A stretch of 61,146 nt of DNA, counting the filler, from Malassezia furfur (lineage: Eukaryota): assembly GCA_052055015.1 (NCBI GenBank). It is 2 parts of 2 records of this genome, joined end to end, with 100 filler letters (N's around TTAATTAATTAA, not from the genome) between each part and the next. Parts side by side here need not be neighbours in the genome. Positions count along the whole stretch, not along the records: positions 1 to 30,539 come from JBQJIT010000100.1; 1 more part is not named here. One strand, written 5' to 3'. Below the pieces are notes generated by a model. It worked only from the letters and a program-made list of their open reading frames with translations. It ran no database searches and was not told where the DNA came from. Within the stretch, counting starts at the first letter, position 1; each line of letters begins with the position of its first letter. This document shows positions 13,105 through 26,915 of this stretch, in pieces. A program made the position numbers and the translations under genes.

Positions 13105-13338
13105 AGAAATCGCGGACGAAGAACGCTCCGCATTGAGGCAGACGCCTCCAGAAAACAACGTCGTTGGCCCGGTTCTACGAGACCTGGGCTGGCGGCAACG
13201 CGCCCTTCTTCGGCCGACAACGGCCAAGAAAACAAATTCGCGTTAAAAATGCCCGCGCGCAAACTGCCGTTTTCTTCCCTTGCAACGATCTCGACGAAGT
13301 AAGTGTCTATTTCCCACCCCCCACCCCCCTCTCCATTC

Positions 13339-13452
13339 AAAGGATGATCTTTCTTTCCTTTCCCCGGCCTATGCGACTATGCCGAGACTATAAGGACGCC
13401 TGTTTGCTACAGGCATCTTTCTTGGTGCTTGCCAGCACCGTTTTGTCTGATC
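13339..13452 (+). ncRNA. snR190: Box C/D snoRNA snR190-like, inside intron 13299-13503
   Basis: Box C-like AGGATGA (13341-13347) and box D CTGA (13447-13450). The 5' TTCTTTCC/CTTTCCCCG is complementary to LSU domain V CGGGGAAAGAA. TGTTTGCTA (13401-13409) and CATCTTTC (13414-13421) are complementary to LSU domain I UAGCGAACA…GAAAGAUG. It lies directly upstream of U14, as in the known fungal snR190-U14 cluster. Confidence 0.72.
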
Positions 13453-13575
13453 CCTCCCCCCTTCTCTCCCCTTGTTGCGAAAACAGACACTAACACGCGC
13501 CAGCTTTCACTTCAGATTGCCTGTAAAGCGTTGCCGCAGGCTCTGTCTCTGTGAGGTACGTTGTTGACCAGCCAC

Positions 13576-13839
13576 ATGCCCCTGTGATGAAACACTTGGT
13601 ATCCAGCCAAAATTCGCAGTTTCCACTCTAGGACCCACGCAACCTTGGTTGGGGCACTTGGCTCTCCTTCCGAGAGACTTACATGGTGCTGTCCATCTCT
13701 CTGAGAGGACCGGCATGAACCCTCCGCATTGCGGAGTGTCGGGCCAGTGGCAGCATCCAAGTCGTTTGGATCGGTTTGGATTGCAGCCGGCTCTGGTTCG
13801 ATGAGGGTCGCAGACCTTCCTTGGAAGTCTGAGGGGCAT
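13576..13839 (+). ncRNA. U14: U14 (snR128) box C/D snoRNA, expanded (~260 nt), inside intron 13556-13875
   Basis: Terminal stem ATGCCCC/GGGGCAT; box C GTGATGA 13584-13590; domain A TTCGCAGTTTCCAC 13613-13626 (anti-18S GAAACUGCGAA); domain B CCTTCCTTGGA (anti-18S UCCAAGGAAGG) immediately before box D CTGA 13829-13832. Confidence 0.93.
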
Positions 13840-13923
13840 TGGCAGTCATGTTTTGGAACGCATACTAACGATCAGAGTATTGTAGTGTAGTGTTATCAAC
13901 GTGGTAAGTTCAATCGGGTTGGT

Positions 13924-14256
13924 CTGCCGCTTGTACATGATGAGCATGTTACATGCAACCTACAAAGCCTAGGAAGAGCCGTCGTCAGTGCTTTGGGCCT
14001 CTGCGAGGAATTCCCTGGACAGTCTCATTGCCTGCTTTCTCCATGGATTCCGACCGTGCGTGCACGGTCGTTGAGTCGGTGGATCGAGAGGCCAGCGGGT
14101 GCTCTGTACGTCCACGTGCGTGCTTTGTTGCCATCCGCTGGGAGGGCGGTGTCCATTGCCCAGGTCGAGTCCTCCGCATGTCCAACGTTGCAAGGCCGAA
14201 AAATTGGTTCCTGACTCACGTGGCTTTCGTCACGGGACATGCAACGAGCGAGCAGG
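13924..14256 (+). ncRNA. Candidate structured intronic ncRNA (probable snoRNA, family unassigned) in putative intron 13904-14293
   Basis: External stem CTGCCGCTTGT/ACGAGCGAGCAG; ATGATGA at 13937; CTGA at 14211; ACA+3 nt before the 3' stem; several strong hairpins; 12-nt complement to LSU rRNA (TAGGAAGAGCCG, 13970-13981). Confidence 0.5.
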
Positions 14257-14293
14257 CGGCACCCTTTTTTCTTTGGAACAACACTGACCGCAG

Positions 14294-14797
14294 ATGTTCG
14301 TTCGTTCGGCGCCTCGTGGCGTTGGGATGGCGCGTGTTGGGCTTGGGGCGCGCGGCGTATACCCGGTGTGCCCCGTGCGGTCCCAAAGCACGGTCGCGCA
14401 AAATGGCACACAGCCAAGTGACACTGCCACTACGCACTATCGCGTCACCTTGCGGCGCTCGGCCATCGGCTTGTCAAAACAGACTGGACGCGTGTTGGAA
14501 TCTCTTGGGCTTCACAAGCGCCTGCAGAGTGTGTACCAGCCCCAAAACCCCGCCACAGCCGGTGCGATCCTCGCAGTCAAGGAGCTCGTGCACGTCGAAA
14601 ATGTGCGTGCATTGTCCCCAGAGGCGGCCGAGTCCCTTGACGCCTCGGCCACGGTTTGGGTTAATGCGAAAGGCGAGGTCGTGGATGCTGGCCGTGTCGC
14701 CTTCAAGGCACCCAAGGGTTTCCGCGTTGTTGGCAATCTGATCAACGAAGAGCGTGATGCGGTTGTGAAGCGATCACTCTCCGAAAAGGAAATATAG
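14294..14797 (+). CDS. MRPL33: Mitochondrial ribosomal protein uL30m (MrpL33)
   Basis: HYRVTLRRSAIGL…LESLGLHKR.Q.VY…AGAILAVKELVHVE is the uL30 signature. N-terminus resembles an Arg-rich presequence. Confidence 0.9.
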   Translation: MFVRSAPRGVGMARVGLGARGVYPVCPVRSQSTVAQNGTQPSDTATTHYRVTLRRSAIGLSKQTGRVLESLGLHKRLQSVYQPQNPATAGAILAVKELVHVENVRALSPEAAESLDASATVWVNAKGEVVDAGRVAFKAPKGFRVVGNLINEERDAVVKRSLSEKEI

Positions 14798-15233
14798 CGA
14801 CACGCCCTATGCAATATGCTGGTATGGCTTGCCGGCGATTGTAGATATCGATGATACCATCTTTTTCATGACTCCTCTCGAGCCATTACTGCCGTCATTA
14901 GGGCGCAGCGCCCAGGGGACCTGTGTGCTGTATGGGAATTACGCCCGATGGTCTAATCTTTTTGTGATTCGCGCGATTATCGCACAAACCAGTCATTCGT
15001 GCTTTCTCGCGCCACATCTGGGGTTCCACGCAGTGTAAGTATCTGGTTCGTGCGAATCACCAAACCGCCACCCTCCAGCACACCAGACTCCGTAAGTGGG
15101 GATCCCTTCCTACCAATCGTTCTATTGGCGTGTCCGATCTCAAATCCGCCGTGTCCCCTGATACATTATATATTGAGACTTGCTGTGTACACGGACCAGC
15201 CGATCCCTTCTCCCTCTCTGCTATCTCCTCGCT

Positions 15234-25533: not shown

Positions 25534-26915
25534 TCACTTTTCGTCCTCGGTGATGGGCTCGTCGACCCACCCGCCACCGAGGTCGGGCGGCAGCTCGTCC
25601 ATTTGCACACTGGGTGCGCCGTGTAGGTAGCGTAGCTGCTCCAAGATCTGCACGCGGATTCGCTCGAGGTTCGCGCGCGCGTTTTGGTTCTCGACGCGCG
25701 TGAGCAGCGGCTCGTGCAGCCGATGCGTCGGTGCGAAGAAGGCGTCGTAGGGCGTATGGGGCAGGTCGTCGGGCACCTGGGTGCCCGTAAGCACCGACGT
25801 CTCGTATGTCCAGCACCGCGCGACGTTACGAATCGTATACCCACCACCGCCCAACACAAGGAGCGGGATGCCAAATGCTTTGGTAAAGGCGACGCACTCG
25901 CCGTGTCCTGAAATGCTCAGGTTGAAGCACCCCAGGCGGTCGAGCCCCAGCGAGTCCGCGCCGCACTGGAGCACGATGGCGCCGGGCCGGAACGTGTAGA
26001 TACACGGCTCAATGATGCTCTTGAAGAGCGACACGTAGGTGCTGTCGTCGATTCCGTCCTGCAGCGGGACGTTGAGGCAGAAGTGCTTCCCAAGTCCGAC
26101 GCCGGTCTCGGAGATGTCGCCCGTGCACGGGAAAAAGTCGTTACCGTACTTGTGGAACGACACAGTCATAACGCGGTTGGAGTTGTAAAAGGCCTCTTGC
26201 ACACCGTCGCCGTGGTGGATGTCGATGTCGATGTACAACACCCGTGGGAAGGTGCGGAGCAGCTCAAGAATCGCCAGGACGATGTCGTTGATGTAGCAGA
26301 AGCCACTCGCCTCGAACTTTTTCGCATGGTGCAGTCCGCCCGTCCAGTTAATGGCAATGTCGGTCGTGCCCGCAGCGAGCCGGCGTGCGGCCGCGAGAGA
26401 GCCGCCGGCGTACGCACGGCAGAAATCGTACATTCCGTCGAACACCGGGCAGTCGTCGGCGAAGTTGAAGCGCGTAAAGTCGGCTGACAAGGGAGACGAG
26501 GGTGTGACGGTGCTGAGGAAGTCGACGTAGTCGCTATCGTGGAACGCCTCGAGTTCCTCGCGCGATGCCCAGCGTGGAGAGTAGACGCTCATGTACTTGT
26601 GCAGGCCGTAGCCGTACACGAGGCGGTTGGTGAGCGCGAGTCGCGCAGGTTTCATCGGATGGCGCTCTCCATAGTGCTGCGGTGTGAGTGGGGCAAACGT
26701 ACGTAGTCGCTGACGCCGACTGCAAAGTAGTACGACACGCGTGGGTTCGAGTGCGGCTGGGTATGTTTCGCGTCGGCGAGCAGGGCGCCTTTTGCAAGCT
26801 CCGGCGCGCCATCAGGCGTGGTTGGGCACCGGTCGAAGAAGAAGGGGGCGCTCGAGAACGTCGGGAGGGGCGCCTGCGGCGCGTTCGGCGCCGCGTCGTA
26901 CGCCAGGACGACCAT
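25534..26915 (-). CDS. HOS2: Class I histone deacetylase, Hos2-like; intron 26677-26702
   Basis: [62 protein letters not shown]. The Hos2 rather than Rpd3 assignment rests on RLALT/YGL and the short C-terminus. Confidence 0.85.

Follow-up and report, generated by a model that had tools for sequence, protein, structure and literature searches.

What kind of RNA, if any, is encoded in the third leader intron of a Ribosomal_L30 gene of Malassezia furfur? The question was raised by a preliminary description of a DNA stretch of 61,146 nucleotides (nt) from GenBank assembly GCA_052055015.1 (two parts joined by 100 filler letters; the whole stretch is called the window in the following), in which positions 13924-14256 had been taken for an unidentified structured RNA with a 12-nt antisense match to the peptidyl-transferase region of the large-subunit ribosomal RNA (LSU), possibly a non-canonical guide or chaperone small nucleolar RNA (snoRNA). 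Our answer, to which we assign a probability of about 0.68, is that the intron encodes a divergent and enlarged box C/D snoRNA of the Afu_198 type (Rfam RF01500), with the U49 site of Arabidopsis as its predicted target. We see in it a rather ordinary snoRNA and no new RNA class, and its most likely function, as far as its sequence indicates, would be to guide the 2'-O-methylation of an LSU cytidine near the catalytic centre. A snoRNA-type RNA on the plus strand, beside other snoRNAs, had thus been recognised correctly, as had the 12-mer as an antisense element against the peptidyl-transferase region; the term unidentified has to be given up, because the module of box C, spacer and 12-mer is that of a known family and the target site has been assigned to U49 in Arabidopsis.

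The evidence that carries this answer lies in the 5' module of the RNA. The sequence ATGATGA at 13937-13943, which contains the sole TGATGA of intron 3, is followed at 13970-13981 by the DNA TAGGAAGAGCCG (reverse complement CGGCTCTTCCTA), and box C, spacer and the guide UAGGAAGAGCCG stand over 13937-13981 in the register that marks members of Afu_198. In a relaxed Rfam scan (matches up to E 10, covering 13200-14400) the Afu_198 model aligns with 13923-13982 (17.8 bits, E 0.96), and the consensus of this model agrees in box C (AUGAUGA) and in spacer length, and shows the identical 12-mer in capitals at the position aligned with it. The motifs, their spacing and the similarity of this module to the family are direct observations. 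The family takes its name from Afu-198 of Aspergillus fumigatus, which is described in an excerpt of its source as a box C/D snoRNA with a complementary DNA of 130 nt, an intergenic location and the predicted 26S targets Cm2856 and Um2859 (PMC2377427). The 12-mer is present as first described, as an exact reverse complement of LSU sequence, and the caution that it is weak evidence when taken alone was well placed: with at most one mismatch allowed, a window should hold 0.20 matches by chance, and at least one turned up in 19 of 100 shuffles. The combination of box C, 15-40 nt and 12-mer occurs once in the window and in none of 100 shuffles.

Metagenome contigs were scanned for the same combination, which recovered at least 113 loci; the family counts given below are counts among the matches listed. 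A C'-like box followed by CUGA was found in 51 of the 113 loci (47 distinct), and removal of two of them (L005 and L106) as chance matches left 45 relatives. The Rfam threshold of Afu_198 was passed by 6 of the 20 loci tested and, in a second, overlapping set, by 7 of 20, with 14 of 20 at E ≤ 1; given these matches and the score gradient from 53 to 25 bits, we regard the relatives as the same family as Afu_198. With its 17.8 bits, the window copy stands at the divergent end of the continuum that is formed by the relatives' scores. The layout of the relatives is: box C, a spacer of 19-39 nt, the guide, 1 nt, a D' box of the form NNNA, GG, a hairpin, a C' box RUGCUUA, 10-16 nt and the box D CUGA. 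The D' box starts 1 nt past the guide and ends on A in all 45, and its forms are AAAA (20), AAGA (7), CUGA, CUUA and AUAA (4 each), and AUGA and AUUA (3 each). A covariance model (R1) that was built from the 35 shorter relatives (alignment A1) matches the window only once, at 13925-14016 (21 bits; E 0.063 for the window and 0.00042 for 401 nt). The elements of the intron are as follows:

13904-14293 (plus strand): putative third intron of the host transcript, with putative splice sites (GTAAGT at the 5' end, CAG at the 3' end) and a branch-site-like ACTGAC at 14283-88
13922-13934 (plus strand): 5' strand of the outer stem in the minimum-energy fold, pairing with 14244-14257 and lying 2 nt upstream of box C
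13937-13943 (plus strand): box C AUGAUGA, aligned with box C of Rfam Afu_198 and of R1
13944-13969 (plus strand): spacer of 26 nt, in which AACC (13957-60) is the candidate 5' strand of an internal helix (P1)
13970-13981 (plus strand): antisense guide UAGGAAGAGCCG, complementary to LSU 5'-CGGCUCUUCCUA-3'
13983-13987 (plus strand): degenerate D' box, CGUC (13983-86) in the family register and GUCA (13984-87) off by 1 nt
13984-14004 (plus strand): echo of the C'/pre-D/D module, GUCAGUGCUUU..GGGCCU CUGC, covered by the 3'-module alignment of R1 and without the GA of a D box
14005-14174 (plus strand): Y-shaped structured insert, with a base stem (14005-33/14144-74), hairpin A (14035-14090) and hairpin B (14092-14141)
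14187-14194 (plus strand): poor C' candidate GUUGCAAG where relatives have RUGCUUA, a weak match to A1 and to the 3'-module alignment
14202-14210 (plus strand): pre-D element AAUUGGUUC, in which GGUU (14206-09) is the candidate 3' strand of P1
14211-14214 (plus strand): box D CUGA, the sole CUGA between guide and branch site
14219-14257 (plus strand): 3' flank, with a hairpin of 6 base pairs (bp) at 14219-34, GGACAUGC at 14235-42 (partner 14176-83) and the outer stem's 3' strand (14244-57)

The identity of the target sequence is likewise observed directly. Its sense form, GAUGU-CGGCUCUUCCUA-UC, is eukaryotic LSU and occurs within L156, a fragment that Rfam classifies as eukaryotic LSU with 283 bits. 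Against L156, the guide is the only Watson-Crick match of at least 12 nt; seven others of at least 12 nt need G.U pairs. Box C/D guides use an antisense element of at least 10 nt next to box D or D', and the 2'-O-methyl group goes to the target nucleotide opposite the fifth position before that box. The 12-nt Watson-Crick match between guide and LSU ends 1 nt before the D' position, and by this rule the predicted modified site is the cytidine opposite G13978, the fourth nt of the target. This cytidine is the C* of CGGC*UCUUCCUA, and the prediction reproduces Cm2856 of A. fumigatus, with Um2859 as the U three positions on. Excerpts of the literature also place the target sequence inside the published LSU primer RB (PMC11862000) and the human 28S primer h28S_F (PMC6822507).

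The site can be followed through the numbering of other species. Other predicted sites of A. fumigatus lie 23 below known yeast sites in excerpts of the published site lists (2792/2815, 2701/2724, 2706/2729 and 2925/2948; PMC2377427, PMC8583080, PMC11542601), so that the target C would be yeast C2879 and, since the Arabidopsis numbering is that of yeast plus one (Um2922/Um2921), Arabidopsis Cm2880. In the same excerpts, Arabidopsis Cm2880 is equated with human Cm4456 and assigned to AtU49/ZmU49 (PMC8583080, PMC11542601). By this chain of numbers the whole 12-mer target is yeast 2876-2887. The preliminary description had let the target carry m5C2870, and this assignment was off by about 6 nt: the C at that position, as placed in L156, lies 6 nt 5' of the duplex and hence outside it. 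We take yeast m5C2870 and Psi2865 to be modified LSU sites, and we likewise presume that human SNORD49 guides Cm4456. No SNORD49-type Rfam family was found at E up to 10 within 13200-14400, and a literature search for a link between the U49 snoRNA and C4426 found none. What the locus would add is a likely guide for a 2'-O-methylation near the peptidyl-transferase centre that is listed in Arabidopsis and human.

The LSU primer was also searched in other collections. In viral contigs it gave 0 loci. In prokaryote genomes it mostly recovered archaeal 23S; of three loci tested with Rfam, L156 was eukaryotic, and L115 and L153 were archaeal. The 21-nt eukaryotic LSU primer occurs exactly in many archaeal 23S sequences (L114-L180), including those of Promethearchaeota, Bathyarchaeota, Woesearchaeota and Methanosarcinales. 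The eukaryotic LSU fragment L156 (248-2278, minus strand) stems from a Saccharibacteria bin, in which it is probably a contamination, and carries a group I intron (63.1 bits at 762-1066).

Various observations weigh against the assignment to the Afu_198 family and its target, and they concern the score, the boxes around the guide, the 3' half of the RNA and the yeast site. The Rfam search that had been suggested at the outset gave a divided result: a scan of the whole window at curated thresholds yields no match, and Afu_198 appears in the relaxed scan only, at 17.8 bits against a gathering threshold of 40 and with only the model positions from box C to the guide aligned. A canonical D' box after the guide is absent, as had been noted: the D' position reads CGUC, where all 45 relatives have NNNA, followed by GG in 38 of the 45. 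CGUC is followed by AG and the shifted GUCA by GU, and neither family form fits cleanly; the 1-nt shift to GUCA would moreover move the target to the preceding G. No convincing C' box RUGCUUA is found 10-16 nt before box D, GUUGCAAG at 14187-94 being a poor match and the better one, GUCAGUGCUUU at 13984-94, lying out of place. Boxes C and D are both canonical. In their class, a terminal stem joins the two boxes into a kink-turn that binds Snu13, Nop56, Nop58 and fibrillarin; no such stem adjoins the boxes here, the sole stem (13922-34/14244-57) being only 2 nt away from box C but 29 nt away from box D. The 3' module of R1 lands at 13986-14005 (GUCAGUGCUU..GGGCCUCUGC) and not at the CUGA of 14211, and a hidden Markov model (HMM) of the 3' module gives 14201-14214 only 1.9 bits (E 18). 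Finally, the yeast column is empty at the Cm2880 site in both tables, as excerpted (PMC8583080, PMC11542601). The RNA is therefore not a plain member of Afu_198, as it departs from the family in the Rfam threshold, the form of D', the C' box and the adjoining terminal stem. The label non-canonical, which it had been given earlier, is right in part: a degenerate D' box is usual in the family, where CUGA is found in 4 of 45 relatives.

The placement of box D deserves separate attention. The box C-like ATGATGA at 13937, the CTGA at 14211 and the ACA near the 3' stem are all found where the preliminary description had put them, and the only other CTGA of intron 3, at 14284, lies within the branch-site-like ACTGAC. 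As an alternative box D we considered CUGC at 14001-04, within the stretch to which R1 aligns its 3' module, and rejected it: it is without GA, and its C'-like match is at chance level (an 11-mer with 2 mismatches at 13984-94, GUCAGUGCUUU, where such matches number 55 in the window against 49.7 expected). R1 penalises long inserts; run over 14017-14300 with filters off, it returned nothing above -3.9 bits, and the 3'-module HMM found no significant match in the window, its best match (6.3 bits, E 0.68) lying elsewhere. That best match, at 25788-25798 on the minus strand, is an exact copy of the family C' motif GTCGGTGCTTA and is probably due to chance. The pattern AMTTGGTYNCTGA, taken from the relatives L015 and L105, matches the window solely at the pre-D element with its box D, AAUUGGUUC-CUGA (14202-14), at an expected count of 0.02 per window and with a match in 2 of 100 shuffles; a further point against the placement is that this subgroup of two was picked after the window sequence had been seen. 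Box D was placed at 14211-14 on the basis of this pre-D match to relatives and because the CUGC alternative is without GA and has a C'-like match at chance level.

The relatives also indicate what may lie between the guide module and box D. Their length from box C to box D ranges from 99 to 312 nt, with a median of 132 nt and at least 305 nt in 4 of the 45; the 278 nt of the window copy are unusual but have precedent. The family hairpin is very variable in length and has a conserved apical motif, GYAY-CGNCAN-RURC, the 4-bp stem of which shows compensated changes in L004, L055 and L075; across the family its variants are GCAU/AUGC, GCAC/GUGC, GUAU/AUAC and ACAU/AUGU. Of 27 relatives with ACCC in the spacer, 20 have GGGU ahead of box D, and of 10 with AACC, 9 have GGUU there. 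This association, with a Fisher p of about 2e-5 to 6e-5 when relatedness is ignored, suggests that an internal helix between spacer and pre-D element (P1) takes the place of a second guide, and it is the only clear sign of P1. Two further comparisons, both weak tests, gave duplex energies of -6.65 for own pairs versus -5.97 for cross pairs, and 5-mer complements (G.U allowed) in 29 of 46 versus 52% of cross pairs. In the window copy the candidate P1 joins AACC (13957-60) and GGUU (14206-09) over 4 bp only. RNAalifold on A1 yielded nothing but an invariant pairing, in which the 3' half of the guide may meet the C' region, and it detected no covariation. Most long relatives carry their insert between D' and C'; in L051 it lies between C' and D, so the inserts of the family are not confined to the D'-C' hairpin. 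The locus L051 further has a canonical D' CUGA and a C' UGAUGA 7 nt apart, some 75 nt from C' to CUGA, and a GGGG/CCC terminal stem that flanks the CUGA. A blastn comparison of 13200-14800 with the 113 metagenome loci listed matched the guide region and nothing else. These features give a poorly described snoRNA family a testable structure, made up of a co-varying internal helix, a conserved hairpin at the apex and inserts that reach about 200 nt.

A recurring, near-identical sequence among the loci stands apart (L006, L011, L012, L021, L023, L035, L054, L093, L095 and L109, also L101 and L110). It has a box C and, after a spacer of 17 nt, the same 12-mer; it differs downstream (UGCUGCC...), where it is without a family-like 3' module, and may be the U49-type guide of another eukaryotic lineage.

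The fold of the RNA agrees for the greater part with the stems that had been drawn at first. On the plus strand the minimum-energy fold reaches -145.2 kcal/mol, against -127.9 ± 5.3 in dinucleotide shuffles (z -3.25; 1 of 100 shuffles as good), and since the minus strand has a z of 0.04, the structure is strand-specific. The external stem of 11 bp from 13924-34 is present and extends to 13 bp in this fold (13922-34/14244-57), with one bulge and some G.U pairs; the hairpin at 14051-70 is indeed perfect, over 8 bp (14051-58/14063-70), and the 10-bp stem 14092-14101/14132-14141 is there too, with one G.U pair included. For the long-range stem, 13996-14006/14188-14197, pairing is possible with a 1-nt bulge and one G.U pair, and the stem is absent from the minimum-energy fold. 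The insert 14005-14174 alone folds at -83.4 kcal/mol; its apex GUAC-GUCCAC-GUGC (14106-19) is weakly like the family apical hairpin, a likeness that is not significant (R1 local, -3.9 bits, E 5-7).

From these elements we infer a stable RNA with defined ends, its assembly into a small nucleolar ribonucleoprotein (snoRNP) and the methylation of its target, in the following manner. Splicing and trimming would release an RNA of about 13932-14218, and the core box C/D proteins would assemble on box C (13937-43) and box D (14211-14). The outer 13-bp stem is probably an intron-level stem that helps the fold of the intron to bring boxes C and D together and is trimmed later; external stems of such a kind were reportedly described by Darzacq and Kiss (2000). 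The other pieces of the 3' flank are probably intron-level folding elements as well, and would be trimmed off. The guide (13970-81), just upstream of the degenerate D' box, would pair with LSU 5'-CGGCUCUUCCUA-3', and fibrillarin/Nop1 would then 2'-O-methylate the C at its fourth nt, which corresponds to A. fumigatus C2856, yeast C2879, Arabidopsis C2880 and human C4456. Between guide module and box D, the RNA would carry a structured insert of about 190 nt, as some relatives do.

We rank the guide reading first, a pairing-only chaperone as its main rival and a decayed remnant third. The main rival shares the snoRNP-type RNA and the LSU site with the guide reading, and differs in that the RNA would assist ribosome assembly by pairing only, without methylation, its enlarged domain adding contacts; we consider this unlikely, though it has to be taken seriously. 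It would account for the degeneracy of both D' and C', and it fits the company of the U14-like and snR190-like neighbours (see below), the families of which have processing or chaperone roles; snR190 is said to have been described as a pairing-only assembly chaperone by Jaafar et al. in 2021. A degenerate D' box is, however, normal in the family, as the 4 of 45 relatives with CUGA show. At the D' position, CGUC could pair with the LSU GAUG that adjoins the target on its 5' side. The duplex would then be 17 nt long, with a single U.U mismatch, and cover the place where D' is expected; not one of the 45 relatives has this extension. Two of the seven matches to L156 that need G.U pairs, 14081-92 and 14141-53 on the flanks of hairpin B, fall 9-26 nt upstream of the target; here a purine-rich stretch faces a pyrimidine-rich one, with 4 G.U in 12, and the rRNA is that of an unrelated eukaryote, so that these possible contacts may serve as a lead only. 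The homologous site is, moreover, truly methylated in plants and humans according to excerpts of both tables (PMC8583080, PMC11542601). An elaborate form of the chaperone reading, in which a methylation-incompetent RNA would clamp LSU across the target and directly 5' of it, over 17 nt up to the nucleotide next to m5C2870, touch it again through the flanks of hairpin B and belong to a dedicated three-intron cassette of assembly snoRNAs in the uL30 leader, seems to us unlikely.

That the intron yields no stable RNA, and holds a decayed snoRNA remnant or a chance combination of box C and 12-mer, with stems that would serve the folding or splicing of the intron by joining the 5' splice site and the branch site, is improbable. 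The score below the Rfam threshold, the degenerate D' and C' boxes and the lack of a terminal stem beside the boxes would all be expected of a remnant, and the outer stem does span nearly the whole intron, beginning 18 nt past the 5' splice site and leaving 26 nt to the branch site. Yet box C, guide and box D are all intact and follow one another as they should on the expected strand, box C plus 12-mer appears in 0 of 100 shuffles, the pre-D element matches that of relatives, and snoRNA-like sequences in all three leader introns suggest a snoRNA host. Least credible of all, and very improbable, is the reading as an H/ACA snoRNA, or as an RNA of a novel class, with an incidental 12-mer. Its attractions are the ACA at 14237, near the 3' strand of the outer stem, and a size and structure that are unusual for box C/D; the hairpin before that ACA is of 6 bp only, though, the relaxed Rfam scan, with E up to 10, brought up no H/ACA family, and inspection, without the use of a dedicated H/ACA finder, revealed neither an H box nor a pseudouridylation pocket, which agrees with the earlier failure to build such a pocket. 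The box C/D reading, on the other hand, accounts for all the conserved elements.

The guide reading places the RNA in a host gene with further snoRNA-like sequences. Directly after intron 3, at 14294, begins the ATG of an open reading frame (14294-14797) for a Ribosomal_L30 protein of 167 amino acids (Pfam, E 8.8e-14), which from its family and its N-terminal extension is probably the mitoribosomal uL30. Three putative introns lie in its leader: 13299-13503, 13556-13875 and 13904-14293. In the relaxed Rfam scan the first contains an snR190-like RNA (RF01249; 13342-13453, 18.8 bits, E 0.1), and the second a U14-like RNA (RF00016) in two pieces, 13579-13654 (23.7 bits, E 0.048) and 13721-13836 (18.4 bits, E 1.4), which carry both 18S-complementary domains; in the U14-like RNA, box C lies at 13585-90 and box D at 13829-32, the terminal stem is of the form CCCC/GGGG, and there is an internal insert. 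The order, snR190-like then U14-like, is presumably that of the yeast snR190-U14 pair. With a snoRNA-like sequence in all three introns, the uL30 leader looks like a snoRNA host cassette. No RNA of the window reaches the curated Rfam thresholds in the whole-window scan, the snR190-like, U14-like and intron-3 RNAs included; with all three intron RNAs below the Rfam cut-offs, curated covariance-model thresholds miss snoRNAs of this lineage. Basidiomycota seem, according to the excerpted part of PMC5824354, to be without snR190 or U14 orthologs, which is relevant only if the host is a basidiomycete. The main text of that fungal snoRNAome paper, as excerpted, has no mention of Afu_198, AM921922, U49 or the site 2879/2882, and the excerpt of PMC8476143, from the Malassezia snoRNA literature, has none of the intron-3 locus. 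An open reading frame of 262 amino acids (13953-14741, plus strand) crosses the snoRNA region and enters the uL30 gene in another frame; it matches no Pfam family and is probably a spurious by-product of base composition.

With the snR190-like and U14-like RNAs the intron-3 RNA shares the box C/D class, the long rRNA complementarities and the host transcript; these two are also divergent and below the Rfam thresholds, and the U14-like RNA also has an insert. It differs from them in its antisense element and target, and no sequence similarity to them was seen. To U49 (AtU49/ZmU49) it can be likened by its target site, in that the same nucleotide, Cm2880/Cm4456, is the one predicted opposite G13978; U49-type guides are typically several times shorter than the intron-3 RNA. 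From the Afu_198 family it is set apart by its length (278 nt against a family median of 132 nt), by its location in an intron of the mitoribosomal uL30 gene, where Afu-198 is listed as intergenic in the excerpted source (PMC2377427), and by its U14-like and snR190-like neighbours, neither of which was found within 1.5 kb of the 20 relatives scanned. It resembles that family in its box C AUGAUGA, in a spacer that is long (26 nt, where the relatives have 19-39 nt), in the identical guide UAGGAAGAGCCG, in a D' box expected 1 nt past that guide, in the variable hairpin that separates the guide module from box D, and in a GGUU or GGGU just before CUGA that matches an AACC or ACCC in the spacer.

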